Shown: positions 32,352 to 53,139 of the stretch, one piece after another
Layout of the letters: every line of letters starts with the position of its first letter
Position numbering within the stretch: position 1 is the first letter of the stretch
Source: Myxococcales bacterium
Lineage (GTDB): Bacteria > Myxococcota_A > Polyangia > Polyangiales > DASUME01
Length of the DNA stretch: 64,000 nt
Direction: 5' to 3'
Assembly: GCA_047601445.1 (NCBI GenBank)
Contig: JASGJH010000001.1
Location: 3,168,001-3,232,000, forward strand
Notes under the pieces: model-generated
The model's database searches: none
Seen by the model: the letters and a program-made list of their open reading frames with translations, nothing else
Told to the model about the DNA's origin: nothing
Position numbers and translations under genes: made by a program

Positions 32352-35300
32352 TCACACGCGGAACAGGAGCGCGCGGCAGGGCTCGCCGAACACGTCGCTC
32401 AGCGCCTGGCAGTACAGCGCGAGCTGGCGCTCGTAGGCGCGCAGGTCCACCACCTCCACGTCGGTCTTGAAGTCCACCACCACCCATGAGCCGCGTCCTT
32501 GCTCGTCACGCTCGCGGAAGGCCAGGTCGATCACGCCGTCGAGCAAGGTGCCGTCCGCGGCGCGCAAGGTCACCGGGAACTCACGATAGACCTCGGCGCG
32601 AACATCGGCCGCCCGTACGCGCTCCCAGAGCGGATGCGCGAGCGCCAATCGCGTGTCGATTACGGCGCGCTCCATCTCCTCGGGGGTCGCGCCCAGGCCG
32701 CGTCCCACGAAGGTGGCCAGGCCGCTCAACGCGTCCGCCGCGGTCCCTGAAGACCCGCGCTCGAGCAGCGCGTGAACGAGCGTGCCGAAGCGGGCCCCCG
32801 AGGGACGCCCCACGCGCTGCGCGCCGCTATCGATCACCTCGAGCTCGGCCGCGAGCGCCACGGGCGCGCGCAGCTCATCGTGGGCGGCCTGGGTGATGCT
32901 CTGAGCGAGCCAGCTCGGGCTTGCGGCCCGCGTGCGCAGCTCGTGACGGCCCACCACCCAACGCTCGTAGTTCAGCCTGCCCTGCTCGTCGCGACCGTGC
33001 TGCTCGTCGGCGGCCAGCAGCTCTTGTTGCGTGAGTCCCCCGACCGGCGGGCGCTTCAGCTCGAGGAAGTTGGGATCCCACCAAACCACCTTGTGTTGCC
33101 CGCTCTGCGGCTGGTGTAGACCCGGTGCCACGGACTGCTCGGGATCGTGTGGAGCATCCATCGGCCAAGAGACCACCGAGTCGCCCCCGAACTGCGGCGT
33201 GCCCGCGGCCTGCCCGAGCGGACGCCGGAACGCCTCGCGCGCCGGGTAGAGCGCGGGCGCCAGCGGGTCCAGCCAGCCCTCGATCACGGCGTCGCCGCAG
33301 GTGGGCACGACCAAAATTTCCTTGGCGCGCGTGGCGGCCACGTAGGCCACGCGAATGACCTCGCTCTCGTCCTGGTCGCGCACGTGCTCGCGTTGCTCGA
33401 TCAGCTCGCGCGGTTCCACATCGCAAAGCGACTGCGCCCATAACCGACGCTCGCCATCGATGTGCCGGGAAGCTCGCTGCACCCGGCGCGGCGCGTTCGG
33501 ATCGCAAAGCACGACCACCGGGAACTCGAGGCCCTTGGCGGTGTGCACGGTCATGATGCGGACGCCGTCGCTGCCCTCTTCGATCACAGGCGCCTCCGGG
33601 GCCTCGGCGAGCTCCGCCTGACGATCGAGCCACTCGACGAAGCCGCGGAAGGACGTGACGCCGCCGCGCCGTTCGTGGGAACGCGCGAAGTCGAGCACCC
33701 GCAGCACGTTGCCGAGGGCCTGCTCACCGGTGGGCCAGATGGCGATGCCCGCGTGGGCGCGCAGGGACTCGAGGAGGCTCGCGATGGTGCTCGCGATAGG
33801 ACGCCGATTGCGGCTCTTGTGGAGCGCAGCGAGCAGCTCGAGTACCTCGGCTACCTCGCGCTCTGCGGGCTCGAGGGCGTCCCGCTCCACGGGGCCCAGC
33901 GGGTGCAGGTGCCGCACTTTGCGCTTGAACGAGAGCAGGCTCTCGTCGCTCAACGCCACGAAGGGTCCGCGCAAGCTCGCGTACACATGCAGAGCATCGT
34001 CGGGCCACTCGATGGCCGTGAGCACAGCGCGCAGCGCGATGATCTCCTCGCGCGCGTGAAACGAGCGGCCGCCGGAGAGCACGTGCGGGATGCGCCGTGC
34101 CTCCAAAGCCCGCACGTACTCACGGGTGACGTCATCCTCGAAAGAGCGGAAGCGCTTGAACAGCAGGCACACGTGACGCGCCTCGACGGGCACGTCGCGC
34201 CCCGCCTCGTGCACGCGATAGCCGCTGTGGCGCACCAGCCAGTCCACCCAGGCCGCCACGGCGTCCGGCAACGACGCGTCGATGGCCCCCTTGGTGATGC
34301 GCCCGTAGGGACTATAGGGCTCCGGAACGGGCAGGGCGATCACTTCGGGTTGCCTCTCGCGCGCGCTGCGGAAAGGCGCGAGCGGCACGTAGTCCGCCTG
34401 GCCGCTTTCGCGGTTGCCGGTCATCAAGGCGGCGAAGGCCCCGTTGACGCACTGCTGAATGCCGGGCACCGATCGGAAGCTCGTGGAGAGCTGCACGAGC
34501 TCTGCGCCTTGCTGCACCAGGTGTTGCTTGACCCGTTCGTAGAGCAGCACGTCGGCGCGTCGAAAGCGATAGATGCTCTGCTTGGGATCGCCGACCAGGA
34601 ACAGCTTGCCGGGCACGCTGTGCGCCTGCCACGGATCGTTCGTCGCGGCGTCGTCGGCGGCCAACAGCAGCAAGATCTCGGCCTGCACGGGATCGGTGTC
34701 CTGAAACTCGTCCACGAACAGGTGGGTGACGCGGGCCTGCAGCGTGGCGCGCACGGTGTGGACTTCGGCGATCAGGCGGCGCGTGAATAGCAATAGATCG
34801 AAGAAGTCGAGCGCGCCGAGGCGGGCCTTCTCGCGCTGGTAGGCGTCCACGGCGGGCAAGAGCTCGCGCGACAAGCATGCGGCCAGATCGGCGCCAGCGT
34901 CCTCCGCGAAGCGCTCGAGCTTGGCGCGCGCCGCATCGCGCAACGAGAGCACCTCCGCGCGCGAGCGCTCCCCCGCGAAGACCTCGCCGCGCCCCGGTTT
35001 GCCGCGGAGTTCACTCTTGTAGCTGCGGTCCTGGGCGAGCTGTCGCAGGAATTCTTCCAGGGCGTCCAGCGACAGGCCGCGCGCGTTGCCCAGCTTGTTG
35101 CCCAGGCCGCGCAGCGCGACCGCCAGCGGATCCCCGCGCCCTGCCCCCTTGGCCAGCGCGGAGAGCCCGCGCAGCTCCTCGAGACACGCCGCGATGGCCT
35201 GCTCCCGCTCGAACGGATCCCGGCGGTAGCTGGTGGTGAAGTCGCGCGTCTCCACCAGGTTGGCCACCGCCTGGAACAGGGTCTCGCGCACCGCCTTGCC

Positions 35301-35864
35301 CTTGTCGCTCACCTGCTTTCGCGCGAGCACGCGACGAACACCTTCGGGCGGCGACTCCACGACGGCTTCGAACCAGGTCGCGAAGGAGCGCTCGAGCAAG
35401 GCGCGCGAACGTCCCGCGTCCAGCACTTCGAACGCTGGATCCACGCCTGCCTCGACGGGATGGGCCCGCAACAGGTCGCTGCACAGCCCATGGATGGTGC
35501 CGATGCGCGCTGCCTCGAGCTCCGACAGGGCCACGCGGAGGCGCGTCACTTCCTCCCCCGTGCGCGCGGCGTGCAAGAGCGCGCGATCGAGCTCGGTGCG
35601 GATGCGCAGCTTCATCTCACCGGCGGCCTTTTCCGTGAAGGTCACCGCCACGATGGATGAGAGCTTGCCGAGTCCACTCGCCACGATGGCCACGATGCGC
35701 TGCACGAGCTCGGTGGTCTTGCCAGTGCCGGCCGCAGCCTCCACGATGAGGGTGCGCTCGAGGCCGTGTCGGATCGCGAGCCGTGCCTCGCCATCGATCA
35801 GGCGTTCCACGTCCTGCTCGCGGTGAGCTGTCGCCGCGTGATTCTCAGGGAGACCTGAGCTCAC
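32352..35864 (-). CDS. addA: AddA-like UvrD helicase-nuclease subunit
   Basis: AAAGTGKT, TFTEKAA, VDEFQDT, GDPKQSIYRFR, TVHTAKGLEF, YVAATRA, C-terminal GVIDL..DFKT. GTGA overlap with the upstream gene. Confidence 0.9.
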   Translation of the reverse strand: MSSGLPENHAATAHREQDVERLIDGEARLAIRHGLERTLIVEAAAGTGKTTELVQRIVAIVASGLGKLSSIVAVTFTEKAAGEMKLRIRTELDRALLHAARTGEEVTRLRVALSELEAARIGTIHGLCSDLLRAHPVEAGVDPAFEVLDAGRSRALLERSFATWFEAVVESPPEGVRRVLARKQVSDKGKAVRETLFQAVANLVETRDFTTSYRRDPFEREQAIAACLEELRGLSALAKGAGRGDPLAVALRGLGNKLGNARGLSLDALEEFLRQLAQDRSYKSELRGKPGRGEVFAGERSRAEVLSLRDAARAKLERFAEDAGADLAACLSRELLPAVDAYQREKARLGALDFFDLLLFTRRLIAEVHTVRATLQARVTHLFVDEFQDTDPVQAEILLLLAADDAATNDPWQAHSVPGKLFLVGDPKQSIYRFRRADVLLYERVKQHLVQQGAELVQLSTSFRSVPGIQQCVNGAFAALMTGNRESGQADYVPLAPFRSARERQPEVIALPVPEPYSPYGRITKGAIDASLPDAVAAWVDWLVRHSGYRVHEAGRDVPVEARHVCLLFKRFRSFEDDVTREYVRALEARRIPHVLSGGRSFHAREEIIALRAVLTAIEWPDDALHVYASLRGPFVALSDESLLSFKRKVRHLHPLGPVERDALEPAEREVAEVLELLAALHKSRNRRPIASTIASLLESLRAHAGIAIWPTGEQALGNVLRVLDFARSHERRGGVTSFRGFVEWLDRQAELAEAPEAPVIEEGSDGVRIMTVHTAKGLEFPVVVLCDPNAPRRVQRASRHIDGERRLWAQSLCDVEPRELIEQREHVRDQDESEVIRVAYVAATRAKEILVVPTCGDAVIEGWLDPLAPALYPAREAFRRPLGQAAGTPQFGGDSVVSWPMDAPHDPEQSVAPGLHQPQSGQHKVVWWDPNFLELKRPPVGGLTQQELLAADEQHGRDEQGRLNYERWVVGRHELRTRAASPSWLAQSITQAAHDELRAPVALAAELEVIDSGAQRVGRPSGARFGTLVHALLERGSSGTAADALSGLATFVGRGLGATPEEMERAVIDTRLALAHPLWERVRAADVRAEVYREFPVTLRAADGTLLDGVIDLAFRERDEQGRGSWVVVDFKTDVEVVDLRAYERQLALYCQALSDVFGEPCRALLFRV

Positions 35865-38800
35865 GGCATCCCCCGGACGCGGTGGAGCGGACTCAAGCGC
35901 AGCCCGTCCTGAGCCTTCACGCGTGCGACCCGCTCGGCCTCGTAGGGCCCACACACCACGCGGTAGGCACAGTGGTCGCACTCGGAGCTGCCCGCTCGAT
36001 GCTGCGGTGCCGCGGGCAAGAAGCCTTGCGCCACCATTCCGTCGATGGCGTTCACCAACTCCTGAGCGCGCTTGCGGTTGCCGTCATTGAGCGGCACGTC
36101 GTGGCTCTGGAAGCCCGCCTTGCTGGTGCAGAAATAGAGCCGGCCTGCGTCGACCTTGCTGCTCGGGAAGAGCTGCTCGAGTGCGAGCGCATAGAGCAGG
36201 GGTTGGAGCACACGTCCCCCGTCCGTGACGGCGAGGGCATTTTCCTGGGCTTTGCCGGTCTTGTGATCGGTGGCGCGCACGAGCGTGGGCGCGGCCGAGT
36301 CGGAGCCCGCGCTGCGCTCCACGAGATTGATGGCGCCGCGCAGCTTGAGCCCGACGGGCAAGAGCACGGGCTCGACCCGGCTGTGGGGGTCGCGCTCGAG
36401 TGAGGAGCGCAAGCCGAACCCGAGTTCGAAGCGCCAGGGGATCCAGCGTGCTTCATCCAGCATCCGCGCGAGCCACTCCTCGAGGTCCGCGCGCAGTGCC
36501 ACCAGCGAAGCGTCGAACACGCGTTCGACGGCGGGAGCGTAGGTCTCCTTGAGGGAAGCGACCTGGGCCACGAACACTTGTTCGAGCAAAGCCCGGGCGC
36601 GCGTGAGCCCCTCACGCGTGAGGGGCAGCAGCTGCTCGGCCGCGAGCCCGCTGAGGACATCGTGCTGAACCGCGTGAAAGAGTACGCCGCGCTGGCGCGC
36701 ATCGAGTTCGTCGAGCTCTGGCACTTGCTCCCGCTCGGCCACGCCCATCACCGAATGCAGGAAGAAGCGATAGGGGCAACTCGCGAACTGAGCCAGGGCC
36801 GAGGCCGAATACGGGCGCGCCGCGAGCCGCTCGCTAGCCATCAGGCGCGCGGCGCTCTCCTGGGAGAGCACGAGGCCATCGGCCTGCGTGAAGCGAGGAG
36901 TTTCCCAGCGGCGGGCCCGAAAGCGCAGGGCGCGCGCCAAGTTCGGGTTGGCGAGCAAAGAGTAGCGCGCACCGCCCTTGCGAGCGCCGGCCCGCGCACG
37001 CCACAGGTCGAGCACGGCCAGGTCGTACTCCGCGTCATCGATGGCCTGCTCGGGGGACGCCGGCGCGGGCCAGCCCATGCGCGCCGCCGCGCCCGGGTCG
37101 GCGCGGCGATTGAGCTCGTCGAACGCAGGCAACGCTCCGTCCACGGCATGCAGCACCTCGAGGCCGTAAAAGGAAGGCACCCGCGGACGCCCATGCTCCA
37201 CGTCGAAGCGCGGAAACGACAGCACCACCTGGCCACGCGCCGCGCCCACGGCGAGCCGCAAGAGCACGCGCTCGCGGGCCGCACGCTCTTCCGTGAGCAT
37301 CAGGTGCGGCCCGAGCGCGCGTCGCTTCGCATCCGGGAGAATGGGATCTTCGTGTAGCCGCGGCGGAAACACCTTCTCGGCCAGCCCCAGCACGAACACC
37401 TGCTCGAAACTGCGCCCGGCCGCGTCCTCCACGTCGCCCACGAACACCTTGCCCGCGCCATGCCCGCCGCTGCGCACGATGGCGGTGCCGAGGCGTCGGG
37501 AGAGCAGCCGCTCCACGTCGAGTAGCTCGACGGGTCCCACCGAAGCGAGCGGCGCGAGCTCGAGCAGCGCTTCGCGCACGCTCTCCGGGCGCTGCAGGCT
37601 ACGGCGCGCCAGGTCGTCCAGGGCCGCCAGCCACTCGCCCCAACTAGCCCGCTGCGGTAGGCCCGTCAGGCGATCGAGCAGCGGGAGGGCGAACTCGAGC
37701 AAGGCCGCGAGCTGGCCACGCTGCAAGGTGAGGGACGCGTGTCGAGGCCCCTCCGGCTCCGTGCCCACGAGCTCGAGATCCAGCTCGCACAACAAGGAGC
37801 GCAGCCGGCGCTCCCAGCGCGCGCGACCGCCGATCACCGTCGCATCCACGAGCAAGCGCTCCCAGCGCCGCGGACTGCGCGGCGTGCGCTCGCTATCGTC
37901 GTCGACGGCGGCGCCGGTGCGCGTGTCGTCGGGCTGCTCGTCGACCGCAGCCGGAGCCACGCCGAGCGAGAGATACTCCGCGAAGGCACGCGCCGAGAGC
38001 CCCTCGCGCGCGCAGGCGAGCAGCGCCAAGAAAGCCCGTCCTTCGGGCACCGGGCGCCGCACGCCATCGGCGAAGTGCGCCGGGATCTGCGCGCGCCGCA
38101 GCGCTTCCTCGACCGGGTCACGATAGGCGTCGGCTGCGCGCAGGAAGATCGCCATGCGATCGAAGGCTACGCCGCGCTCCGCCGCCGCCAAGATCTCGCG
38201 CGCCACCTCCACGGCCTCGCGGTTCTCGCCTGCGCCCGACATCAACTTCACGCGACCGCGCTCGGCCGCGGGACCACTCCCCGACAGGCTGGGCGCGAAG
38301 AGCTGACGCTTGAGTTGGGCCAGATCGTGGTCCTCGAGCGGGAACCGGCGCTCGGTCAGCGCGTCCTCTCCCAGCGAAAGTCGCCAGAAATGTTCGCTGT
38401 GTTCGTCGCCTCGCGCCACGCTCACGCGCGCCTGCAGACGCGCCCGACAAAGTGCGGCAGCGAACTCACTCTCGCGCGCGTGCACCAGTGGCACGTCGAG
38501 CACCACCAACGCGCAACGCGCGAGCGCGCGCCGTGGATCCGCCCCCAGCGCCTCACTCGCCAGCGCGAACAAGCGCGGGCGGTCGCACAGCTGCTCACGC
38601 TCGAGGGCCTCCTCGTAGCGCTGCAGAAACAGCGCTAATTCGCGGTCATGGGGAGCAAGCAGGGCTGTCGTGACCCCCGCCATGCGCAGCTCGATCAGGG
38701 CCTCGCTCAGCGCCCGCACGAAGCCAGGGCGCTGCCCGATCTCGCCGAAGCGCCCGAGCTCGCCGGTGCCCGAGAGCTCGAACACCACGCGCGCGCACAG

Positions 38801-39076
38801 CGCCTCTACTCCCACGCCGCGCAACAACGCGAGGCCCGCGCGCGCCAGGCTCGGCAGAGCAAACTCGAGCGCCGCGCTCTCGAGCGTGTGCTTGGCCCAG
38901 CCCGCGCGCGCCTGGCCCGGGCCGAGCACACGCTGCACGAGGGCGAGCCCCGAGAGGGGACTCGGCGCGAGAATCAGCGCGGGTTCTTGGGCAGGCAGGT
39001 CGCGCAGAAACGCCTCCGCGGCCGCGAGACGCTGCTCGCCGCACGGCGACTCGAACAAGCCTACGCTGCGCTTCAC
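35861..39076 (-). CDS. addB: AddB-like subunit (inactive helicase plus Fe-S PD-(D/E)XK nuclease)
   Basis: SCPYRFF...CDHCAYRVVC Fe-S staple, LRGAINLVE..DHKTG. Coupled to addA. Confidence 0.85.
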   Translation of the reverse strand: MKRSVGLFESPCGEQRLAAAEAFLRDLPAQEPALILAPSPLSGLALVQRVLGPGQARAGWAKHTLESAALEFALPSLARAGLALLRGVGVEALCARVVFELSGTGELGRFGEIGQRPGFVRALSEALIELRMAGVTTALLAPHDRELALFLQRYEEALEREQLCDRPRLFALASEALGADPRRALARCALVVLDVPLVHARESEFAAALCRARLQARVSVARGDEHSEHFWRLSLGEDALTERRFPLEDHDLAQLKRQLFAPSLSGSGPAAERGRVKLMSGAGENREAVEVAREILAAAERGVAFDRMAIFLRAADAYRDPVEEALRRAQIPAHFADGVRRPVPEGRAFLALLACAREGLSARAFAEYLSLGVAPAAVDEQPDDTRTGAAVDDDSERTPRSPRRWERLLVDATVIGGRARWERRLRSLLCELDLELVGTEPEGPRHASLTLQRGQLAALLEFALPLLDRLTGLPQRASWGEWLAALDDLARRSLQRPESVREALLELAPLASVGPVELLDVERLLSRRLGTAIVRSGGHGAGKVFVGDVEDAAGRSFEQVFVLGLAEKVFPPRLHEDPILPDAKRRALGPHLMLTEERAARERVLLRLAVGAARGQVVLSFPRFDVEHGRPRVPSFYGLEVLHAVDGALPAFDELNRRADPGAAARMGWPAPASPEQAIDDAEYDLAVLDLWRARAGARKGGARYSLLANPNLARALRFRARRWETPRFTQADGLVLSQESAARLMASERLAARPYSASALAQFASCPYRFFLHSVMGVAEREQVPELDELDARQRGVLFHAVQHDVLSGLAAEQLLPLTREGLTRARALLEQVFVAQVASLKETYAPAVERVFDASLVALRADLEEWLARMLDEARWIPWRFELGFGLRSSLERDPHSRVEPVLLPVGLKLRGAINLVERSAGSDSAAPTLVRATDHKTGKAQENALAVTDGGRVLQPLLYALALEQLFPSSKVDAGRLYFCTSKAGFQSHDVPLNDGNRKRAQELVNAIDGMVAQGFLPAAPQHRAGSSECDHCAYRVVCGPYEAERVARVKAQDGLRLSPLHRVRGMP

Positions 39077-39795
39077 CACCACCAAACCGCCACCACTCCG
39101 ATCACCGCCCAGCCACCCATGGACAGCAAGAGGCCCGACAAGGCGCGCGCCGTCTGGCCGCGCGCGCTCAAGGCACCGTAGAGCGCGAGCCCGCTCCAAA
39201 ACAAGCCCACAGGCAGCAAAAGTGGCCCCAGCACCGGGATCGCCAACGGGCTCAAGCCGTAGGCCGTGGCGCGCACCAGCACGTCGTAGCGCACGGCGAT
39301 CTGCAGCATCCGACACAGCGCCCACAGCCAGCCTGCGTAGACGGCTACGCCCAGTGAAAGCAGCGTGGAGAACACCAACGATGCCGGTACGAGCGAGACC
39401 GCCGTACCCAGCAGTCCCGTGCTGTGTAGCCCGAGACGCGGGGCGTCAGCCCAGGTGAGCAACGGGACTGCGCCCGCGATGGACAGCGGCAAGAGTCCGC
39501 ATACACCGCACAAGAACACGAATTGCAACGCATGCACCAGGTGACCCGCACCGCCGAGGCGGCGCCCCAGCGAAAACGGCCCAGCAAGGCCGGCGCGCAG
39601 GGTGTTCCAGAACGCGCGCGAGATCCCGAGCTCCCCGCGCTCCTCCCAGTCGACGGTGGCACGCACCACACAGCGATTGCACATCGCCACGGGCTCGAGC
39701 GGCGTACACAACCGGCACACGAAGTCCCCGCAGCGCACGCAGCTCGCTTCGGCCTCGGCGTCTCGATGCGTCGCGCAGCGCGCTAGTTGAGACAT
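39073..39795 (-). CDS. Membrane protein with N-terminal B-box-like zinc finger and Yip1-like TM domain
   Basis: CATH..CVRCGDFVCRLC..CNRC followed by about 5 TM helices. Confidence 0.7.
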   Translation of the reverse strand: MSQLARCATHRDAEAEASCVRCGDFVCRLCTPLEPVAMCNRCVVRATVDWEERGELGISRAFWNTLRAGLAGPFSLGRRLGGAGHLVHALQFVFLCGVCGLLPLSIAGAVPLLTWADAPRLGLHSTGLLGTAVSLVPASLVFSTLLSLGVAVYAGWLWALCRMLQIAVRYDVLVRATAYGLSPLAIPVLGPLLLPVGLFWSGLALYGALSARGQTARALSGLLLSMGGWAVIGVVAVWWW

Positions 39796-39865: not shown

Positions 39866-41068
39866 TCACTCGAGCACGTAGAACGCGCGACCGTAGGTCT
39901 CGAGCAAGGACAGCGCCCTGTCCATCTCTTCGCGCGTGTGCCCGCGCGTGACGTTGAGGCGCAGGCGCTCGTCGCCGCGCTTCACCGCCGGGTACACCAG
40001 CGGCACCATCATCACGCCGTTCTCGAGCAGCGCCACGTGCATGAAGAGCGCCTTGGCCTCGTCGCCGCAGTTGGGGGGCATGATGTGCGTGTTGCTGCGG
40101 CCCAGGTTGAACCCGAGCTCGGTCAAGCTCTTGCGCATGTAGGCCGACTTCTCGTGGAGCTCCGCCACCAAAGCGGGCCCTTCCGCCTCGAGCATCGTCA
40201 GGATGGTCGACACCGCGGCCACCACCGGTACCGGCAGCGTGGCGCTGAACATGAAGGAGCGCGCCGAGTTCTTGATGTGCTCGATCACGTCGGTCGAGCC
40301 CAAGAGCAGCCCGCCGATGCCGCCGAAGACCTTGGAGAACGCCGTCATCAGCAGCGGCACGCGACCTTCGAGCCCGAAGTGCTCGAGCGTTCCGCGCCCG
40401 TTGTGGCCCAAGGTGCCCGAGCCGTGCGCATCGTCCACCAGGAGCACGGCGTTGTAGCGCTCGCAAACCTCGACGATCTCCGGCAGGGTCCCCATGTCGC
40501 CGTCGAGCGAGTACACGCCTTCCACCAGCACCAGGACGTTCTTGCGCTCCTTGGTCTTGAGCACGCGCTCGAGGGACTTGGCGGAATTGTGATTGAAGAA
40601 GCGCACCTCGGGAGCGCGCTTGGGGGTGCCCGCCGCCAGGAACGTGCCGTCCAAAATGCAGGCATGGCTCAGGTTGTCGAGCGCCAGCGTGGTGTCGCTG
40701 TCCGACAGGGCCATGATGGCCCCCACCATGGCCTGATAGCCGGTGGTGAACATGAGCGCGGCCGGGTAGCCGAAGAACTTGGCCAGGCGCTCCTCGAGCT
40801 CCACGTGGGCCGTGGTGGTGGCTTGCGGGCGCGAGCTCGAGAGTCCCATCGCGTACTTCTCGACAGCGGCCGCGGCGGCCTCCTTGACCTTGGGGTGCGT
40901 GGTCAGCCCGAGATAGTCGTTGGAGCTGAACTGCACGATGGGCTTGCCCGCGATGGACGTGCGTAGACCGCCGTTCTCGAACTCCCGAAAGAGCGGGTAG
41001 ACCTGCTTCTCCTTGGCCTCACGGATACGGGCCAGCTCTGCGTGCGCCTTCTCGTCGATCCAGTTCAT
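39866..41068 (-). CDS. PLP-dependent alpha-oxoamine synthase (serine palmitoyltransferase/BioF/Kbl family)
   Basis: SNDYLGL, SHACILDG, EGVYSLDGD, DDAHG, AFSK (PLP lysine), RLRL. Confidence 0.9.
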   Translation of the reverse strand: MNWIDEKAHAELARIREAKEKQVYPLFREFENGGLRTSIAGKPIVQFSSNDYLGLTTHPKVKEAAAAAVEKYAMGLSSSRPQATTTAHVELEERLAKFFGYPAALMFTTGYQAMVGAIMALSDSDTTLALDNLSHACILDGTFLAAGTPKRAPEVRFFNHNSAKSLERVLKTKERKNVLVLVEGVYSLDGDMGTLPEIVEVCERYNAVLLVDDAHGSGTLGHNGRGTLEHFGLEGRVPLLMTAFSKVFGGIGGLLLGSTDVIEHIKNSARSFMFSATLPVPVVAAVSTILTMLEAEGPALVAELHEKSAYMRKSLTELGFNLGRSNTHIMPPNCGDEAKALFMHVALLENGVMMVPLVYPAVKRGDERLRLNVTRGHTREEMDRALSLLETYGRAFYVLE

Positions 41069-42273
41069 GCCTGGTCTCTCTTCCTCAAGATCACCGCCGA
41101 AACGTTGCCGTAGTACCCAAGCGCAGTGATCAACACGTGGCGCACTTCGCGAGGGGCGTCACCGCGCAACAGAGGCTTCGGCTCAATGCCCGACAAAAAC
41201 CCGACCGCGGCCGCCATGCTTAGTGCCGCGGCCGCGCCAAACGTTTCGCCCCAAATGCCCTTTGTGGCCACGGTGGCCACATCCGAGCCGAACACGCGCG
41301 CCAAGCCCTCTTCTTCGGCCAGGTCCACGCGACTGACCCCGCTCGCGGCGCAGGCCACCAAATCCACCTGCTCGGGCTCGATCCCGGCATCGGCCAGGGC
41401 TGCGCGCACCGCGCGCTCCACCGTGACGTCCGAAGCATGCACCAGCTGCGCCTCCGAGAACGGCGGATCGAAGGCCGTTCCGAAGCCCACGATCTCCGCC
41501 CATACCTTGGCCCCGCGCGCCGCGGCGCTCTCGAGGCTCTCGCACACGAGCAACGCCGCCCCCTCGCCCAGGTGCGTGCCACGGCTCGTCACGTCGCCTG
41601 GTTCGGAAGGGCGGTCCCCTTCGCTGATCACGCCGAGCTTCTCGAAGGCGAGGTAGAGCGGCTCGCTCACCACCTCGGCGCCCCCCACCATTAGCGCATC
41701 GGCGCGCCCGCAGGCGATGTGGGTCTCTGCCGTGAGCACCGCGTTGGCGCCGCCGCAGTTGCCGTCGACGATAGTCACGTTGGGCCCTTCGAGCCCCTCC
41801 CAGATGCTCACGTAGCCCGCGGCACTGTTGATCACCGTGTTGGGAAAGCGCGACGGGTTCAGGTAGCGGGGATGCTCGAGCTCGGCCACGCGATTGATCT
41901 CGGTGATGCTGTCGAGGGAGCCGTAGGCCGTGGCCGCGCAGATGCCGAGCCGCTCGGGCCCCACACTCGCGAACGCCCCCTCACGCTTCAGTCCAGCGTC
42001 TTCCAGCGCGTGCTTGGCCGCCACCACCAACAGGCGCGTCATGCGGTCGAAGTTGCGCAGCCCCTTGTCACCCAGATACTGCGCCGCGTCGAAGTCGCTC
42101 ACCTCGGCCACGATGGCACGTGCGAAGCGCGCGTCCGTGAGCACACTGCGCGGCCCCGCGAACGCGCGCTTCTTGGCCGCGACCGGATCCGCCAGCGCCG
42201 CGAAGAAGGCCTCCCGCCCCACCCCCACCGGACTGACCACCGAGAGTCCCGTAATCGCCAGTGGATGCATCAA
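41065..42273 (-). CDS. Ketosynthase-like chain length factor (catalytically inactive)
   Basis: KS fold (ITG..VSPVG, FPNTVIN, LGEGAA). Active-site motifs are replaced: GPNVTIVDGNC, ACAASG, KGIWGET. Confidence 0.8.
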   Translation of the reverse strand: MMHPLAITGLSVVSPVGVGREAFFAALADPVAAKKRAFAGPRSVLTDARFARAIVAEVSDFDAAQYLGDKGLRNFDRMTRLLVVAAKHALEDAGLKREGAFASVGPERLGICAATAYGSLDSITEINRVAELEHPRYLNPSRFPNTVINSAAGYVSIWEGLEGPNVTIVDGNCGGANAVLTAETHIACGRADALMVGGAEVVSEPLYLAFEKLGVISEGDRPSEPGDVTSRGTHLGEGAALLVCESLESAAARGAKVWAEIVGFGTAFDPPFSEAQLVHASDVTVERAVRAALADAGIEPEQVDLVACAASGVSRVDLAEEEGLARVFGSDVATVATKGIWGETFGAAAALSMAAAVGFLSGIEPKPLLRGDAPREVRHVLITALGYYGNVSAVILRKRDQA

Positions 42274-43523
42274 GTGCTCCCGGCACCGCGCCGCGCGACG
42301 GGCACCGGCAGAATCCCTGGCTTCGCGAACGTGACGACCGCGTCATATCCCCCGAAGGCCAGCGCATTGTTGAGCACGATGTCGGCCTTGCCGGCACGCG
42401 CCTGATTGCGCACCACCTCCACGTCGCACTCGGGGTCGGCTTCTTCGTGATGGATGGTGGGCGGGTAGATGCCGGTCAAAATGGTCTCCACGCAGGACAC
42501 CGCCTCGAGCGCGCTGGCCGCACCCATGCAGTGCCCCACCATGCTCTTGATGCTCGAGATCGGCACCCGGCGTCCCTCGAACACTTCCTTGATCACCACG
42601 CTCTCCACTTGATCGTTGGCGGGTGTGCCCGTCCCATGGGCGTTCACGAAGTCCACTTGCCCGTGCGTGAGTCCGCTGGCCGCGATGGCCTCGCGCATGG
42701 CCCGGATGCTGCCCTTGCCCTCGGGATGCGGGCGCGTGATGTGATACGCGTCGCAGGCCAGTCCGTAGCCGCCGACTTCCGCGAGCAGGTTCGCGCCGCG
42801 ACGCCTGGCGTGCTCCTCCGATTCCAGCACCAGCACGGCCGCGCCCTCGCCGATCAGCAACCCCTTGCGGTTCTTGTCGAACGGCTGACAGTACTCGGGA
42901 GCGATGGCTCCGAGCCGCACGAAGCCCGCGAACTGCACCTTGTCGAGGATCTCGCTGGCGCCCGTGATCACCACGTCGGCGCGCCCTGCCCGAATCTGAT
43001 CGAGGGCGAAGCCGATGGCGTAGTTGCCTGCCGCGCAGGCGGCCGGCAGGGTCTGGACCAGGCCGCGTGCACCCACCGCGCGCGCCACGTGTACCGGCAA
43101 CAGCGTGGTCCCGTAGCGAGCCAACTTGCTGGTGGCCACGGCCTCTTCGCCGCGGTGCAGCCAGGCGCTCTCGAGCTCGGAGATCACGTCGACCTCGCCC
43201 ATGGTGGTGCCGAGCACCACGCTGGCACGCTCGCTGGCGAGGTTGGCCTGCGCGAGCCCCGCGTCTTCGACGGCCATGCGCGCTGCCGCGATGGCGAATG
43301 CCGAACAGCGACCGGCACGACGCGCCTCGGCCGCGCTCAGATGATCGCGTGGACGAAAGTCGGGCACCTCGCAGGCTCGATCTCGACCGAGGTCCTTGGG
43401 GTCGAACAGGGAGACCGTGCGCGCCCCGGAACGACCTTCCAAGAGCGCTTGCCAGAAGGCTTTTCGACCAAGCCCCAGGGAGCTAACCACCCCCATGCCG
43501 GTCACGTACACGCGGCGTGACAT
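42270..43523 (-). CDS. Beta-ketoacyl-ACP synthase (FabF-like, Cys-His-His)
   Basis: AACAAG, NAHGTGT, KSMVGHCMGA, FGG. 4-nt overlap with the CLF gene. Confidence 0.93.
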   Translation of the reverse strand: MSRRVYVTGMGVVSSLGLGRKAFWQALLEGRSGARTVSLFDPKDLGRDRACEVPDFRPRDHLSAAEARRAGRCSAFAIAAARMAVEDAGLAQANLASERASVVLGTTMGEVDVISELESAWLHRGEEAVATSKLARYGTTLLPVHVARAVGARGLVQTLPAACAAGNYAIGFALDQIRAGRADVVITGASEILDKVQFAGFVRLGAIAPEYCQPFDKNRKGLLIGEGAAVLVLESEEHARRRGANLLAEVGGYGLACDAYHITRPHPEGKGSIRAMREAIAASGLTHGQVDFVNAHGTGTPANDQVESVVIKEVFEGRRVPISSIKSMVGHCMGAASALEAVSCVETILTGIYPPTIHHEEADPECDVEVVRNQARAGKADIVLNNALAFGGYDAVVTFAKPGILPVPVARRGAGST

Positions 43524-43659
43524 TGGGCTTGGCGGTTTACCCCAGGGCTCCCCCAAGCGCCAGCATGACGCAGACGCAAGAGTGAATCGGAAGCGAGACA
43601 GCGGAGGGCGTCCACAGACCATGCGGCGGGCGCCGACGCATGCTAAGCGGTGGGCCCCT

Positions 43660-45351
43660 ATGGTCGATGTTCCCCGCACCTTCGTCGAGGCTCTGGAACG
43701 GCTGCCAGCCGGGGAACAAAGAGGATTCCGCTTCGTCACCTCGACTGGGGACGAGCTCTTCTTATCCTATGACAGCCTGCGCCGCGAGGCGACGCGACGG
43801 GCGGGCCTGCTGGCCGAGGCCGGCGTGGCCAAGGGCGATCGCGTGGCCCTGGTCATCCCGGAGGGGCACGACTTCGTGCTCAGCTTCTTGGCCGCAGTCA
43901 TCGCCGGCGCGGTCCCGGTCCCGATCTTTCCGCGCGCGACTTTCAAGGCCAGCTCGGACTACGTCGACTCGGTAGCGCACATCACGGAGGCCAGCGGCGC
44001 ACGCATCCTGCTGTCGGGCGCCGCCAACGCCGAGCTGGTTCAACCAGCTAAGCAGCGCGTGCCCGGGTTGGCCGAAATCGCCGTCACCGAAGCGCTGTTC
44101 ACACCGGAACGCGCCAGCGCGAGCTTCGCTCCGCCAAAAATCGACTCGGCGGATCTGTGCTTTTTGCAGTTCACCTCGGGGAGCACGGCTCGTCCCAAGG
44201 GAGTGATGGTCAGCCATGGCAACCTGATCGCCAATGTCACCTCCTTCCTCGGCCCCCACGGGCTAGCCCGCCGCGACGACGACGTGGGCGTCAGCTGGCT
44301 CCCGCTCTTTCACGATATGGGCCTGATCGGCTTCGTGTTGGGCCCCCTGGTGGTCGACATTCCGGTGGTGCTCCTGCCCACGGCCACCTTCGCACGCGGC
44401 CCGCGCATCTGGCTCGAGACCATCCACAAGCACCGCGGCACCATCACCTACGCGCCCAACTTCGCCTACAGCCTGGCTCTCAAGCGGCTCAAGCCCAAGG
44501 ACGTCGAGTCCCTCGATCTATCGTGTCTGCGCATCGCGGGCTGCGGCGCGGAACCCATCCACGCCGAGACCTTGCGCAGCTTCGCCCGGGCGCTCGCACC
44601 CGCCGGCTTCAAACCCGAGGCGCTCTTGCCCAGCTACGGCATGGCGGAGTCCACCCTCGCGATCAGCTTTCATCCGCGGGGTACGCCCATGGAGGTCGAT
44701 CGCGTCGATTCGACGGCACTGCGAAAAGGGCACGCCAGCCCAGCCCCGGAAGCTGCCGCCGACGACAGCCTGGAGGTCGTCAGCTGTGGTGTCCCCTTCC
44801 CCGATCACGAGCTGCGCATCGTCGACGAGCAAGGCCAGGTCCTGCCCGAGCGGCAGGTCGGCCAGGTGCTCGCGCGGGGACCGAGCGTGTGTCTCGGCTA
44901 CTTCGAGAATCCCGAAGCGACCTCCGCCAGCTTCCCGAACGACGGCTTCCTGCACACGGGCGATCTCGGTTACCTGGCGGACGGAAAGCTGCACATCTGC
45001 GGACGCCTGAAGGACCTCATCATCATCCGTGGCGCCAACTTCCATCCACAGGACCTCGAGTGGGCGGTCTCCGAGATCGAGGGCGTCCGGCGGGGGAACG
45101 TGGTCGCTTTCAGCACCCCTATTTCGGGGGAAGAGCGCCTGGTGCTCGCAGTGGAGTGCGCCTCATTCGAGGCGTCCCAAGTCCGAGCCCGGGTGGCCGC
45201 CAGGGTAAACGAAGCTTTTGGCCTGACGCCCCATCACGTGGCAACTGTAACTGTAGGAAGCTTGCCAAAGACTTCGAGTGGGAAGCTACAGAGAGCGAAG
45301 ACTCGCGATTTGTACATTGGCCAACAGTTGGACGAGCACGCCGAGTCATGA
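43660..45351 (+). CDS. Fatty acyl-AMP ligase (FAAL)
   Basis: LQFTSGSTARPKGV, SWLPLFHDMGL, PSYGMAE, FAAL insertion (VDRVDSTALRKGHA), TGDLG, GRLKDLII, KTSSGK. Confidence 0.92.
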   Translation: MVDVPRTFVEALERLPAGEQRGFRFVTSTGDELFLSYDSLRREATRRAGLLAEAGVAKGDRVALVIPEGHDFVLSFLAAVIAGAVPVPIFPRATFKASSDYVDSVAHITEASGARILLSGAANAELVQPAKQRVPGLAEIAVTEALFTPERASASFAPPKIDSADLCFLQFTSGSTARPKGVMVSHGNLIANVTSFLGPHGLARRDDDVGVSWLPLFHDMGLIGFVLGPLVVDIPVVLLPTATFARGPRIWLETIHKHRGTITYAPNFAYSLALKRLKPKDVESLDLSCLRIAGCGAEPIHAETLRSFARALAPAGFKPEALLPSYGMAESTLAISFHPRGTPMEVDRVDSTALRKGHASPAPEAAADDSLEVVSCGVPFPDHELRIVDEQGQVLPERQVGQVLARGPSVCLGYFENPEATSASFPNDGFLHTGDLGYLADGKLHICGRLKDLIIIRGANFHPQDLEWAVSEIEGVRRGNVVAFSTPISGEERLVLAVECASFEASQVRARVAARVNEAFGLTPHHVATVTVGSLPKTSSGKLQRAKTRDLYIGQQLDEHAES

Positions 45352-45493
45352 AATAGGCAGCTTGTCTGAATTTGTAGAAGGATTGGACGCGTCGATAGCT
45401 GGCCCGTAGAGTTCGCGCGATTAAAGCGTCGAGCCCTCAGTGTTCCAAAACGGAACGTGGCTTCGGAACGTGTCCTGGAGAAGCAATCTGTCT

Positions 45494-45745
45494 ATGAAGC
45501 GCCCTCAACTGATCAAGCTCTTCCGCGACTTGGCGAGTGAGATCGCTGAGAAGGACCTGAGCTTCGTGCAGGAGGAAAGCGCCATCGCTGACCTCGGCAT
45601 TGACTCCCTCGCCATGCTGGAACTGGTGGGCACGATGGAGCGCGAACTGCGTATCCGGGTACCCGACGAGCAGCTGGTGGGACTCGAAACGGTGCGTCAG
45701 CTTCTCGAGCTGGTGGAGCGGCGTCTGCCGCAGAGCGCAGCCTGA
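45494..45745 (+). CDS. Acyl carrier protein 1
   Basis: DLGIDSLAM phosphopantetheine motif, 83 aa. Confidence 0.9.
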   Translation: MKRPQLIKLFRDLASEIAEKDLSFVQEESAIADLGIDSLAMLELVGTMERELRIRVPDEQLVGLETVRQLLELVERRLPQSAA

Positions 45746-45784
45746 GTTCGGGACTACCGCTGAGCCAAGCGAGACTGGAAACGC

Positions 45785-46012
45785 ATGATGGAACTTAAAG
45801 AGAAGCTGCGCGCGATCGTGGCGGAAGTCAGTGAGATCGACCTGATCCCCGACGAGACGCCCTTCGCCGATCTCGGGATCGACTCGATGATGGCGCTGGA
45901 GATCGTGGCCGAGGTCGAGCGCACCTACAAGGTCAGCGTGCCCGAGGATGAACTCAAGGGTCTGACCAACTTCCAGTCGGTCTACAACCTGTTCGCCGCC
46001 AAGCTCAGCTGA
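45785..46012 (+). CDS. Acyl carrier protein 2
   Basis: DLGIDSMMA motif, acidic, 75 aa. Confidence 0.92.
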   Translation: MMELKEKLRAIVAEVSEIDLIPDETPFADLGIDSMMALEIVAEVERTYKVSVPEDELKGLTNFQSVYNLFAAKLS

Positions 46013-48886: not shown

Positions 48887-50260
48887 CTACGGATCCGCGA
48901 GTACCTTGGTGGCGGCTACTTCGCCGCTGCGGATGGCATCGGGGATGCCGACGCCCCGGTAGGCGTTGCCGGCCAAGGCGAAGCCCGCGTGCTTGGCGGT
49001 CAGCGCTTCGATGCGCGCCACGCGCGCCAGGTGGCCGAGCTTGTACTGGGGCATGGCCCGCTCGTAGCGGACCACCCGCGCCCACTTGGGCTCGGCCCGA
49101 ACGCCCATCAGGACGGCCAGCTCCCGCCTGGCGAGTTCGATCAGCTCGGCATCTCGCCAAAGGGCACGCTCCTGCCCCTTGTAACCACCCACGAACACGC
49201 GGATGAGCGCCTTGTCGGCCGGCGCCCGCCCCTCGTACTTCACACTGGCCCAGGTGGAGGCCAAGATTTGGCAGGACTCGCGCGCGGGTACCACGAAGCC
49301 GAACGCATCCATGGCATGGGGCACTTCGCTGCGCTCCCATAGACAGGTCACGGTGGCCGCCGACGCATACTCGATGTCGGAGAGCTCCGCCGCGAGCTTG
49401 GCGTCGAACGCTTGCACGCAGCGCGCCGCCCGGTGCGCGGGCAAGGCGAGCACCACGCGCTCGAATTCTCGCTCGGCGCCGCCAACGGTGACGCGAAAGC
49501 CCGCCGCGTCCCTGGCCACCGCGCTGACCGGCTGCTCCGTGTGGATGACGCCTGAGAGCTCCTTGGCGAGCGCGTCGATGAGCTCCTGCATTCCACCGCG
49601 AAAGGCCACGAACATGCCGTAGCGGGCCCCGGAAGACTGCTCGCTCGCCTGCTTCGCGCGCTGCCTCAATCCCAAGATTACCGAGCGGTGATCGCGCTCG
49701 AGCTCGAGGAAACGCGGCATGGTGGCGCTGAGCGAGAGCGAAGCGGGGTCGGCCCCGTAGATGCCACCCACCAGAGGCTGCGCCAGCTGGTCGAGGGCTT
49801 CGCGGCCAAAGCGTCGCGAGACGAAGCCCTCCAGGCTTTCGTCTTCGCGCGCGCGTCCTCGCGGCAACACCAGGTCCAGGCCCATGCGCAGCTTGCCGGG
49901 CCACGAGAGCAGCGGTGAACGCGCCATGGCGGCCAGATCGGTGGGAGCCATCAACGAGAAGCCCTCGGGCACCCGCTCCAGGACGCCCTCGTGCACGATG
50001 TAAGCGCCCCGCGGAGAGGTCCGCGTTCGGATCAAGCTCGGCTCGAGCCCGAGTTCACGCGCAAGGGCCACGCCCCAGGGCTTCTCCGTGAGGATCGAGT
50101 CGGCGCCGGTCTCCACCACACACTCGTCGATGCGCTGACTGCCGAGCAGGCCGCCGATCCGAGCGGAGGCTTCGAACAACTGCACCTGTGCACCGGCCCG
50201 CTGCAGCCGGAAAGCCGCGCTGAGTCCGCTGATGCCACCGCCGATGACGCACACTCTCAT
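48887..50260 (-). CDS. hemY: HemY-type protoporphyrinogen/coproporphyrinogen oxidase
   Basis: IGGGISGLSAA FAD motif, ETGADS, GIYGAD, AMPQY, GVGIPDAI. Confidence 0.93.
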   Translation of the reverse strand: MRVCVIGGGISGLSAAFRLQRAGAQVQLFEASARIGGLLGSQRIDECVVETGADSILTEKPWGVALARELGLEPSLIRTRTSPRGAYIVHEGVLERVPEGFSLMAPTDLAAMARSPLLSWPGKLRMGLDLVLPRGRAREDESLEGFVSRRFGREALDQLAQPLVGGIYGADPASLSLSATMPRFLELERDHRSVILGLRQRAKQASEQSSGARYGMFVAFRGGMQELIDALAKELSGVIHTEQPVSAVARDAAGFRVTVGGAEREFERVVLALPAHRAARCVQAFDAKLAAELSDIEYASAATVTCLWERSEVPHAMDAFGFVVPARESCQILASTWASVKYEGRAPADKALIRVFVGGYKGQERALWRDAELIELARRELAVLMGVRAEPKWARVVRYERAMPQYKLGHLARVARIEALTAKHAGFALAGNAYRGVGIPDAIRSGEVAATKVLADP

Positions 50261-51228
50261 GGCACTTCGCGTTGCTCGCTGTGGACGGCCGCTATCACGC
50301 TGTCGGCGAGAGCGCGAATGAACGCCGGATGAGTGCCGAGCGTACTCGCGCGCACGAAGCCGAGGCCGAGACTCTCAGCATGTCTGCGAGCCTCGATGTC
50401 GAGGTCGTAGAGCACCTCCACGTGGTCGCACAGAAAACCGATGGGCAGCGCGACCACGTCTTCGACGCCACGTTGCTTGGCGGCAGTCAAGGCATCGAGC
50501 ACGTCGGGCTCGAGCCACGGCTCGCGCGGGTTGCCGCTGCGACTCTGGTACACGAGTGAGGATCGGCCGCAGAGATCGAACCGAGCCGCCACGCGGCGCG
50601 TGGTTTCGTCGAGCTGAGACACATAGGGCGAACCGCTCGCCATGGCCTGGGGAATGCTGTGCGCCGTGAATAACACCTCGGCCCGCGCGCGGCGCGCACT
50701 GGGCAGCGTGGCGAGTGCCTGCTCCAGGTGTTCAACATGGGCTTCCACGACGGCGTCCGACAAGCCGAAGCCGCGCACCAGACGCAGCACGGGCGCGTCT
50801 GCTCCAAGCTCCGCGCGCGCCTTTTCGACGGCAGCCACGTAGCGGGCCAGGGAGGCCTCGGTTTCCTGCGCGGCCATGATCAACCCGAACACCTCACGAT
50901 GGCCACCTGCGCGAAAGGCCTCCAGGCTGTCCTTCAGCCAGGGAGACCAGTGACGCATCCCCACGCGAACCTCGAGCGGATGTCCGCGCGCAGCGAGCTC
51001 TCGGCTCAACAGCTCGGCCTGGCGCTCGGTATGCGCGGTGATGGGCGAGCTGCCGCCGAGCAACTCGTAGTGGTGCACCACCGACTCGAAGCGCTCCTCC
51101 GGCACTGGACGCCCCTCGAGCACGTTCCGCAAGAAGGGTCGGACGTCCTCGATCTTGTGAGGGCCACCGAAGGCGATCACGAGGAGCCCGCGCACCGTCG
51201 AGGCGGACGTCGCGCTCGTGCTAGTCAT
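50257..51228 (-). CDS. hemH: Ferrochelatase
   Basis: FGGP, GGSSP, FTAHSIP, YQSRSG..WLEP, GFLCDHVEVLYDLD. Confidence 0.95.
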   Translation of the reverse strand: MTSTSATSASTVRGLLVIAFGGPHKIEDVRPFLRNVLEGRPVPEERFESVVHHYELLGGSSPITAHTERQAELLSRELAARGHPLEVRVGMRHWSPWLKDSLEAFRAGGHREVFGLIMAAQETEASLARYVAAVEKARAELGADAPVLRLVRGFGLSDAVVEAHVEHLEQALATLPSARRARAEVLFTAHSIPQAMASGSPYVSQLDETTRRVAARFDLCGRSSLVYQSRSGNPREPWLEPDVLDALTAAKQRGVEDVVALPIGFLCDHVEVLYDLDIEARRHAESLGLGFVRASTLGTHPAFIRALADSVIAAVHSEQREVP

Positions 51229-52245
51229 CGCTGGCTGGCCTCGTGCACGTGATCAACCAGCGCCCGCACCTGATCGACCGACGCTTCCGGGAAGATGCCA
51301 TGTCCGAGATTGAAGATGTGGCCCGGGCGCCCCGCCGCCGACTCGAGCACCGCGCTGGCCCGACGCTTCAGCTCCTCGCGCGGCGCCACCAAGGCATAGG
51401 GATCCAGATTGCCTTGCACCGCCTTCGCACCGAGCTTCTGCCAAGTGGGACCGAGTTCGACGCGCCAATCGAAGCCGATCACGTCACCACCCGCCTCGAG
51501 CTGATGCGATAGGAGGGTGGCCGTGCCGGTGCCGAAGTGGATGTGCGGCACGCTGCGATCGAGGCCAGCGAAGAGGCGCTTCATGTGGGGCTTCACGTAA
51601 CGCACGTAGTCCGCTGGCGAGAGGGCGCCGATCCAGCTGTCGAACACCTGAAGCGCCTGGGCACCGCTGGCGACCTGCGCATTGAGGTAGTCGATGGTGG
51701 CGCTGGTGAGCTTGTGCATCAGCGCATTCCAGGCTCCCTCGTCGTTGTACATGAGCGCCTTGGTGTGCCGGTACTCCTTGCTGCCGCCGCCTTCGATGGC
51801 GTAGGACGCCAGCGTGAATGGGGCGCCTGCGAAGCCGATTAGAGGCACGTTGGCCGGCAGGCCCGCGCGCACCAGGCGCACCGTCTGCATCACGTAGCCG
51901 AGCGACTGCGCCGCGTGGATCTCCTCGGACACGCGCTCGATGTCAGCCGCGGTGCGCACCGGCTTCTCGATGTGCGGCCCGTCCCCCTTGAACTCGAAGC
52001 CGATGCCGAGGGGCTCCAAGAATCAGGAGGATATCGGCGAACAGAATGGCCGCATCGACCCCCAGCTGACTCACGGGCAAGAGCGTCACTTCCGCCGCCA
52101 GGTCGGAGCGCTGACACAGCTCCACGAAGCTGACCTTGCTGCGGATGGCCCGGTACTCGGGTTGATAGCGGCCGGCTTGGCGCATCAACCAGATCGGCGT
52201 GTACGACGTTGACTCACCGCGGCAGGCTTGGAGGAAGGCACTCAT
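51225..52245 (-). CDS. hemE: Uroporphyrinogen decarboxylase, split by a +1 frameshift at about 52018 (likely assembly error)
   Basis: [21 protein letters not shown] in one frame, [27 protein letters not shown] in the next. Removing one base gives 339 aa. Confidence 0.93.
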
Positions 52246-52284
52246 CGGCGCCCATCTTACTGCGCGCCGGGGGGGCGTCTACTG

Positions 52285-53139
52285 TCAGGGCATTTGGCGC
52301 TTGGCATCGACGATCCCGCGGGCGAGCCGCGCGGCCTCGAGCACCAGATGCCCCATCTTGCCGTGGGCAGGCTCGAAGTCGGGCTGCAACTCCAGGTTTC
52401 GCACCCCTTCGGTGCAACTCGGCCCCACCGACCCCAGCGCACAGCGCCGCAGCGCGAGACGCAACTCGCTCTCGCAGCCCATGCGCTCGGCCACCTCGAG
52501 CAGGCTCCCCGCCTGCGGGGCCGAGGTGAACAACACAACCTCGACCGTCCCCGCACAGATGGCCTGGATGACCCGCTCGAGCGGCCCGAGGTCATCCGGC
52601 AACTGCCAGCGGTAAACGGGCACCTGCATCACCTGCACACCACGCTCCGTGAGAGCCCGTGTGAGCTGCTCGTGCGGGACGCCGTACTGCTGGAGCGCCA
52701 GGCGCTTGCCGGACAGCGAGGTGTGAGCTTCGAGCACGCTCAGCAGGGTCTGCCAGGTGTGGGGCTCGGGCGCTGCCACCTGCGGCGTGACGCCGATCTC
52801 ACGCAGAGCCCGCACCGCCTTGGGCCCACGGGCGGCCACCAAAATGCCGCGCAGGCGCTCGGCGAACTCGTCCACGCCCATGCGCGCGGCTACCAGCTGA
52901 ACCAGCTTGCGATTGCCGACCCCGGTCAGCACCAGCAACCCATCCAGGCTGCCCGCTCGCAGCGCGTCGATAAACGTCTGCACCTCCGGCCCGAGGTCGA
53001 GCGGCGCTTCCACGAGGCTCGGTCCCACCAGGGGTTCAGCGCCCTGCTTGCGCACCAGGTTGGCGAACTCCTCCGAAAAGCGCGTCTCGAAGATCGCCAC
53101 GCGCATGCCCTTGAGTCCCTCGGATTCCGGCCGGTTCAT
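52285..53139 (-). CDS. hemD: Uroporphyrinogen-III synthase
   Basis: LTGVG, ARGPK, VPVYRW, FTSAPQ, SVGP. Lies in the hem operon. Confidence 0.88.
   Translation of the reverse strand: MNRPESEGLKGMRVAIFETRFSEEFANLVRKQGAEPLVGPSLVEAPLDLGPEVQTFIDALRAGSLDGLLVLTGVGNRKLVQLVAARMGVDEFAERLRGILVAARGPKAVRALREIGVTPQVAAPEPHTWQTLLSVLEAHTSLSGKRLALQQYGVPHEQLTRALTERGVQVMQVPVYRWQLPDDLGPLERVIQAICAGTVEVVLFTSAPQAGSLLEVAERMGCESELRLALRRCALGSVGPSCTEGVRNLELQPDFEPAHGKMGHLVLEAARLARGIVDAKRQMP

Follow-up and report, generated by a model that had tools for sequence, protein, structure and literature searches.

A six-gene oxoamine synthase locus proposed for the entry step of sphingolipid synthesis in most Polyangiales

The 64,000-nucleotide stretch of DNA analyzed here (the window; Myxococcales bacterium, contig JASGJH010000001.1, positions 3,168,001 to 3,232,000) carries at positions 39866 to 46012 a compact cluster of six genes. 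It encodes a pyridoxal phosphate (PLP)-dependent alpha-oxoamine synthase (AOS), an active ketosynthase (KS) with an inactive paralogue, a fatty acyl-AMP ligase (FAAL) and two acyl carrier proteins (ACP1 and ACP2). We consider it likely that, in most Polyangiales, this cluster supplies the long-chain base with which sphingolipid (ceramide) synthesis begins. The basis of this proposal is formed by gene content, catalytic residues, co-conservation and a complementary distribution, from which we infer all reactions. If right, it identifies the missing first sphingolipid enzyme in roughly five-sixths of a widespread order (126 of the 151 genomes sampled) and brings a KS/chain-length-factor pair into primary lipid metabolism. 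Bacteria that produce sphingolipids may then be undercounted in surveys, since the models for serine palmitoyltransferase (SPT) miss this AOS and automatic gene names call it BioF or Kbl. No description of the cluster was found in the literature searched, a search that most subscription journals and MIBiG lay outside, and a KS/chain-length-factor pair for a sphingolipid pathway is not described there.

The key distribution test was done on one fixed set of 151 genomes of Polyangiales, each at least 90% complete, including the genome that holds the window (G000; a single 9.5-Mb contig, 98.7% complete with 5.4% contamination). The AOS is present in 126 of these genomes and a Bacteroidetes-type SPT-like gene in the remaining 25; no genome has both and none has neither. 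The replacing gene has its highest NCBIfam score with the model for CFB serine palmitoyltransferase; it was searched across the set at an E-value of 1e-90 and was not found at that level in any of the 126 AOS genomes. One AOS-positive member of the set, G362, is an unpublished genome; without it the split is 125 plus 25 of 150, and the claims do not depend on it. The partner genes follow the same division. ACP2 is found in 122 genomes, all within the 126 with AOS, and the KS paralogue in 101, while FAAL orthologues (at least 50% identity; genome counts made by hand from the table) occur in 74, with paralogues of 45–49% identity being more widespread. None of the three was found in the 25 SPT-type genomes. 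On an RpoB tree of 60 of the 151 genomes (20 of the 25 SPT-type and 40 of the 126 AOS-type), the state must have changed at least twice, as required by branches whose support is 95 or more. The proposal predicts a lipid difference between the sister lineages that exchanged condensing enzymes. The SPT-like proteins of family f2 have an N-terminal extension of about 120–150 amino acids (e.g., L082:8757-10301).

The genes for the subsequent steps are encoded elsewhere. A 376-amino acid ceramide-synthase-like gene lies within 10 kb of the replacing SPT-like gene in 12 of the 25 genomes. Its product is 37–41% identical to YghO, whose gene adjoins the ligase gene in the spt locus of E. coli BL21, and gave no Pfam, NCBIfam or PDB match. 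The gene is present in 146 of the 151 genomes, among them 121 of the 126 with AOS, with two copies in G000; in G301 the AOS itself stands beside it. A CerR-like epimerase, 30% identical to CerR of E. coli B, has matches of at least 45% identity in 38 genomes, 29 of them AOS-type and at least 19 of them with the match beside the ceramide-synthase-like gene. A KDSR motif was not found in G000. A short-chain dehydrogenase/reductase (SDR) near the second synthase-like gene of G000 was considered as the reductase and not counted, with a LysR regulator located in between. The ceramide synthase and a reductase would complete the ceramide, as the downstream steps have been described (PMC11087976; PMC11324152); in the available part of the latter source, the orthologue table has no row for E. 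coli.

The order appears, from the genes it encodes, to be without synthesis of lipid A, the usual outer-membrane lipid. LpxC above the family cut-off is found in none of the 151 genomes, with four Gram-negative controls passing, and G000 has neither lpxB nor a kdtA domain, nor an lpxA match that reaches the cut-off. Weak LpxC-like genes (84–127 bits versus a cut-off of 187) occur in 28 of the 151 genomes, mostly of family f2, and are possibly a relic or a repurposed deacetylase. Sphingolipids dominate the outer membrane of Sorangium cellulosum So ce56, a strain that is reportedly called lipopolysaccharide-lacking in the title of Keck 2011. The lipids resulting from the proposed pathway would probably take the place of lipid A in the outer membrane, and an essential function of this kind would account for the lack of genomes devoid of both condensing enzymes. 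In Caulobacter, sphingolipids support life without lipid A, and Sphingomonas is cited as well (PMC9393093).

The AOS (400 amino acids; 39866..41068, minus strand; PF00155) is proposed to be a divergent SPT. Its best PDB sequence match is the SPT of S. multivorum (PDB 3A2B/8GUH; NCBIfam NF047600; E 9e-69, 32–33% identity), and in a fold search with a structure model (pLDDT 89) the same enzyme has the top TM-score among the listed matches (0.93, rmsd 1.9), a Thermus AOS being first by E-value. The catalytic set N50, H135, D212, H215 and K246 is present in 88 of 88 AOS orthologues and R370 in 87 of them. N52, S81, H138, D210, H213, S243, K244, S273 and A274 of the S. multivorum enzyme are shared. 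The lysine motif is mostly S-T-F-S-K-T/V in the orthologues and T-A-F-S-K-V here, with FSK as in SPT, where most BioF/Kbl rows have L-S/G-K-A; for bacterial SPT the motif G-T-F-S-K-S has been named (PMC10196870). In a quick tree of 75 proteins with biased sampling, the AOS and its relatives form their own clade (SH-aLRT 100) within a 44-row clade that contains E. coli SPT, to which the AOS is 33% identical, and CFB-like proteins (SH-aLRT 93). The locus would work like an SPT system, with an AOS that scores below the cut-offs of the named SPT families. One relative, P0122, is 51% identical to the AOS and has a C-terminal SDR fused, possibly a ketosphinganine reductase; in a PDB search with this SDR, TSC10 comes only fourth among similar-scoring SDRs.

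Several observations weigh against this assignment and the pathway built on it. With each of the three NCBIfam SPT models the AOS stays under the cut-off (314 of 640, 268 of 500 and 210 of 670 bits), and its score with bioF is slightly higher (321 of 426 bits). Its pocket differs from that of S. multivorum SPT at A79 (S77 here), G80 (S78), F83 (P/V81) and N117 (M114). The SPT-containing clade of the quick, unevenly sampled tree also holds FAAL-ACP-AOS fusion proteins of unassigned product, such as the distant relatives P0141 and P0157. The replacing gene is itself below the CFB SPT cut-off (450–463 of 640 bits). Two switches are few independent events among genomes that are kin, so that the complementary distribution is a strong pattern and not a statistic. 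The YghO-type protein is taken to be the bacterial ceramide synthase from the position of the gene, and the 35% CerR-like match in G000 leaves a gap. Finally, in one genus (g4) all 24 genomes retain AOS and ACP2 but neither the KS paralogue nor a FAAL orthologue, and no KS orthologue was found in the five genomes of this genus tested; how ACP2 is loaded there is left without explanation by our model.

The bioF score, top by a small margin, together with the automatic names and a bioB gene near the reduced locus of one genus, would fit an AOS that is a housekeeping BioF or Kbl, with the other five genes supplying pimeloyl-ACP for biotin. We regard this as barely credible. The AOS is below the BioF and Kbl family cut-offs as well and falls outside the BioF/Kbl clade (SH-aLRT 99), which bears out the view of the earlier, sequence-only reading that it is neither of these enzymes. 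Moreover, a separate family member stands beside bioD in G000, which has four more distant ones, and in five out of five small genomes. In these five, the oxoamine synthase family consists of just two members, this AOS and the bioD-adjacent one; because the latter adjoins bioD, the AOS is the sole candidate to feed the ceramide synthase.

For the amino acid that the AOS would condense, we favour L-serine, with some room left for another substrate. A non-serine base, either cysteate-derived capnine or a 1-deoxy base from alanine or glycine, would lead to sulfonolipid-like or deoxy-ceramides and differs from our proposal in the amino acid only; we give it a minor chance. In its favour, the changes at A79 and G80 affect residues that line the side-chain site according to the SPT residue roles used for comparison (PMC10196870). 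Y111, C137 and the loss of N117 are common to the AOS and the cysteate acyltransferases in the available text of PMC13692747. These acyltransferases have Lys280/281 at the dimer interface and retain less than 10% activity when Lys280 is replaced by Ala (PMC13692747), and the corresponding AOS position, matched via the motif and with no direct alignment, is Ala276 in 88 of 88 orthologues. In addition, no gene of the PALP family was found in G095, a 1.8-Mb single-contig genome that retains the AOS and all five partners. The PALP family is the fold of cysteate synthases. The alanine at the Lys280 position and the PALP-less G095 make cysteate an unlikely substrate, with alanine or glycine still conceivable.

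The six open reading frames have a coding-like codon bias and the expected Pfam domains. They are arranged, as the sequence-only reading had described, in two divergent arms with start codons 136 bp apart, one with the FAAL and two distinct ACPs and the other with an active KS, an inactive paralogue and the AOS. The 4-nt overlaps that it had reported along the latter arm stand for the paralogue/AOS junction (ATGA). Between KS and paralogue the overlap is 1 nt (TGATG) with an ATG start and 4 nt only with a TTG start, and the ATG is the likelier one because it fits a GGAG ribosome site. The intergenic region (43524..43659) holds short stretches near both starts that are conserved across five close loci; a sigma-70-type promoter match was not found in it.

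In the proposed pathway, the FAAL (563 amino acids; 43660..45351, plus strand; PF00501 and PF23024) would activate a free fatty acid and load it onto a cluster ACP, as suggested by its family and by AasR. It is the best match in G000 to AasR, the ligase of the E. coli B spt locus (36% identity, E 1e-94); its best NCBIfam model is PRK09192, at 519 bits under a cut-off of 600. ACP1 (83 amino acids; 45494..45745, plus strand) and ACP2 (75 amino acids; 45785..46012, plus strand) both match PF00550 and carry the GxDS serine, yet are distinct from each other and only 25–28% identical to E. coli AcpR. ACP1 would be accessory, as it was not found in a number of loci where the other genes are retained (L021, L027, L071, L076 and L096, among others). 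ACP2 stays beside the AOS in 11 of 53 loci where the other four genes are missing; since it alone never leaves the AOS, we propose ACP2 as the carrier tied to it and its dedicated acyl donor. This two-carrier split is reminiscent of aryl-polyene clusters. A 4HBT thioesterase often lies directly after ACP2 (16 of 90 loci, e.g., L030:4529-4954, in tandem in some) and is absent from the cluster in the window; the system can do without ACP1, FAAL and thioesterase. Near the AOS, 22 of 90 loci (e.g., L043:11255-11623) carry a third, distinct ACP family with an LGLDSLGVME motif.

The KS (417 amino acids; 42270..43523, minus strand) has the motif ACAAGNY and a triad (C163, H296, H331) that is invariant in 59 orthologues. 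Its neighbor (401 amino acids; 41065..42270, minus strand) has N171, A308 and E342 at the triad positions, so that an active KS adjoins a paralogue without the Cys-His-His triad, as in KS/chain-length-factor genes. The pair is predicted to act as a heterodimer, elongating the chain by malonyl units and determining how long it becomes or what structure it takes. The window has no ketoreductase (KR), dehydratase (DH), enoylreductase (ER), acyltransferase (AT) or thioesterase (TE) gene in or beside the cluster, in agreement with the sequence-only reading; ketoreduction, dehydration and malonyl loading may be borrowed from the housekeeping FabD/G/Z/I. The AOS would then take the acyl chain off ACP2 and, by decarboxylative condensation with the amino acid, yield CO2 and a 3-keto long-chain base. 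A sphingoid-like 2-amino-3-keto compound had already been named as a candidate product and is the likely output.

The closest solved relatives of the KS pair appear, by sequence, to be the anammox enzymes amxFabF2/amxFabFmut. The top PDB match of both subunits is 9s5h (chain B for the KS, E 3e-122; chain C for the paralogue, E 1e-50), which we infer to be the anammox heterodimer of a preprint (bioRxiv 10.64898/2026.05.19.726425), whose searched text does not give the code. In that text the authors call their own case the first KS pair in a fatty acid pathway. The partner tunnel residues Phe135, Thr138 and Val139 given there correspond to F142, T145 and V146 of the paralogue here, the first two being invariant and the third present in 67 of 68 sequences. 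Crosslinking of the anammox pair works best with a C8 probe, though its tunnel has room for C16; with the residues matched here, the chain could thus be built from a medium primer and not extended once. In the anammox cluster, according to the available text, a FabZ of its own stands together with a radical SAM enzyme and a desaturase-like gene, and both AOS and FAAL are missing. The second-best PDB match of the KS is 6kxd chain A, of the ishigamide Iga11/Iga12 highly reducing type II polyketide synthase (PKS), which has the same ACAAGNY motif. Unlike in that system, a dedicated KR/DH is absent here from the window and from the frequent neighbor families scanned. Asp113 of Iga11 is the gate for polyene growth; its equivalent here is Met108, which is invariant in the KS. 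It is conceivable, though improbable, that the AOS receives from the pair something other than a plain saturated acyl group, e.g., a trans-2-enoyl, hydroxy or conjugated polyene chain. If so, most Polyangiales would make an unsaturated or polyene sphingoid base directly, without an oxygen-dependent desaturase, and such a base would be the main outer-membrane lipid replacing lipid A. In that case the cluster would unite type II PKS and SPT in a hybrid at the core of membrane synthesis, and the still unresolved ladderane elongase of anammox bacteria would have an aerobic relative.

Alternatively, the AOS could be an SPT using ACP2, with the KS pair not upstream of it but making an unusual fatty acid for the amide-linked chain of ceramide or for other membrane lipids, released by the thioesterase. 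The persistence of AOS and ACP2 without the pair in all 24 genomes of genus g4, the thioesterase after ACP2 and several genomes in which the AOS has moved off the pair (e.g., L110, L111, L113 and L122) are in line with this option. However, the KS partner is gone from all 25 AOS-less genomes though these keep the ceramide synthase, and in the window KS, partner and AOS are translationally coupled; we find a role of the pair outside the pathway unlikely.

The conservation of the locus was followed with a GTDB genome scan that confirmed 225 relatives, of which the best 80 were used for loci. Gene content was tallied in those 53 loci where the sequence upstream of the AOS spans 6.5 kb or more, leaving out 27 short ones. 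All six genes are present in 34 of them, so the co-conservation put forward by the sequence-only reading holds. The others have lost the FAAL (3 loci), FAAL and ACP1 (2), ACP1 (1) or all but AOS and the KS pair (1), or retain the AOS alone (1), next to the 11 reduced to AOS and ACP2. In a phylum-wide sample, an AOS orthologue (at least 65% identity) was found in 37 of 48 genomes inside the order and in none of 252 outside. The AOS is single-copy in nearly all 126 AOS genomes, those of 1.8–3 Mb included. The locus is broken up in several families, and the flanking genes of the 80 loci vary between lineages, with no conserved tailoring, export or regulator genes found among them. The six genes thus behave as a housekeeping lipid locus and not as a secondary-metabolite cluster.

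This behavior does not fit the earlier idea of a natural-product line, in which the cluster was seen as a dissociated counterpart of RedL. RedL of undecylprodigiosin synthesis has the same domain types as this cluster. A RedL/RedN-like line would extend the chain once by the KS, and the AOS would condense the beta-ketoacyl-ACP with glycine or serine to a 1,3-dicarbonyl amine that cyclizes to a pyrrolinone or alkylpyrrole metabolite or signal. In its favour, the domain set equals that of RedL, the cluster without KR allows a beta-ketoacyl product, and the AOS pocket differs from that of SPT. Lines of the RedL type are patchily distributed and have conserved downstream tailoring or condensation genes. 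The cluster described here consists of stand-alone genes with a predicted KS/partner heterodimer and no AT, is spread order-wide as a housekeeping locus, and is exactly complementary to the SPT-like gene. Moreover, a RedL-like function would leave 121 genomes with a ceramide-synthase-like gene but no SPT candidate, and one genus has the AOS without the KS pair. We therefore hold such a line, pyrrolinone product included, to be very unlikely.

For the proposed sphingolipid pathway, AasR/AcpR/SPT of Rhodobacteria comes closest among known systems; the sequence-only reading had not named it. There, a ligase, an ACP and an SPT have been shown to belong together (Caulobacter CC_1165/1163/1162; E. 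coli B spt locus; PMC9386255), an acyl-ACP ligase and a dedicated ACP being linked to a PLP-dependent condensing enzyme as in our cluster. The locus described here differs by its two ACPs with low likeness to AcpR, by the added KS/partner pair, by an AOS of its own clade, and by a synthase and reductase (cerR) located outside the cluster. The SPTs of Bacteroidetes and deltaproteobacteria use acyl-CoA, whereas the proposed donor here is acyl-ACP2; with regard to them the AOS is 32–33% identical, far under the cut-off, and altered in side-chain and acyl-wall residues, the catalytic residues being kept. AcpR/aasR-like operons of S. cellulosum and M. xanthus have been noted in other contexts in the available part of PMC9386255, which assigns the SPT of S. 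cellulosum to the Bacteroidetes subgroup and is the one paper of the literature searched with the locus tags sce7052-7057. A wider SPT-like clade defined from metagenomes (PMC11334938) may include members of this AOS group.

The surroundings of the cluster in the window are ordinary housekeeping genes. On the AOS side, a 240-amino acid membrane protein (39073-39795, minus strand) is encoded on the AOS strand, 70 bp past the end of that gene. It has a Cys/His motif at its N-terminus, several hydrophobic stretches and no Pfam match, and is a neighbor of the AOS in no more than 4 of 80 loci, which all come from close relatives. It is followed by an AddA/AddB-like helicase-nuclease pair (32352-39325, minus strand). 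On the ACP2 side, a TetR regulator, a hypothetical gene and an iron-type alcohol dehydrogenase (Fe-ADH) precede haem genes (hemY, hemH, hemE and hemD-like; 48887-53139, minus strand), among which the hemE reading frame (51225-52019) begins at profile position 79. Elsewhere in G000, the bioD-linked bioF (G000:C1:5807750-5808875) and rpoB (2769852-2773911) are each split over two frames, which suggests single-base assembly errors. Two further clusters of this genome (G000:C1:4130700-4136500 and 7212300-7218100) are similar to each other: each combines a KS pair and two carrier proteins with an adenylation-type gene and an acyl-CoA dehydrogenase-like gene. Inspection of the translations by eye suggests a resemblance to pyrrolyl-carrier starter systems.

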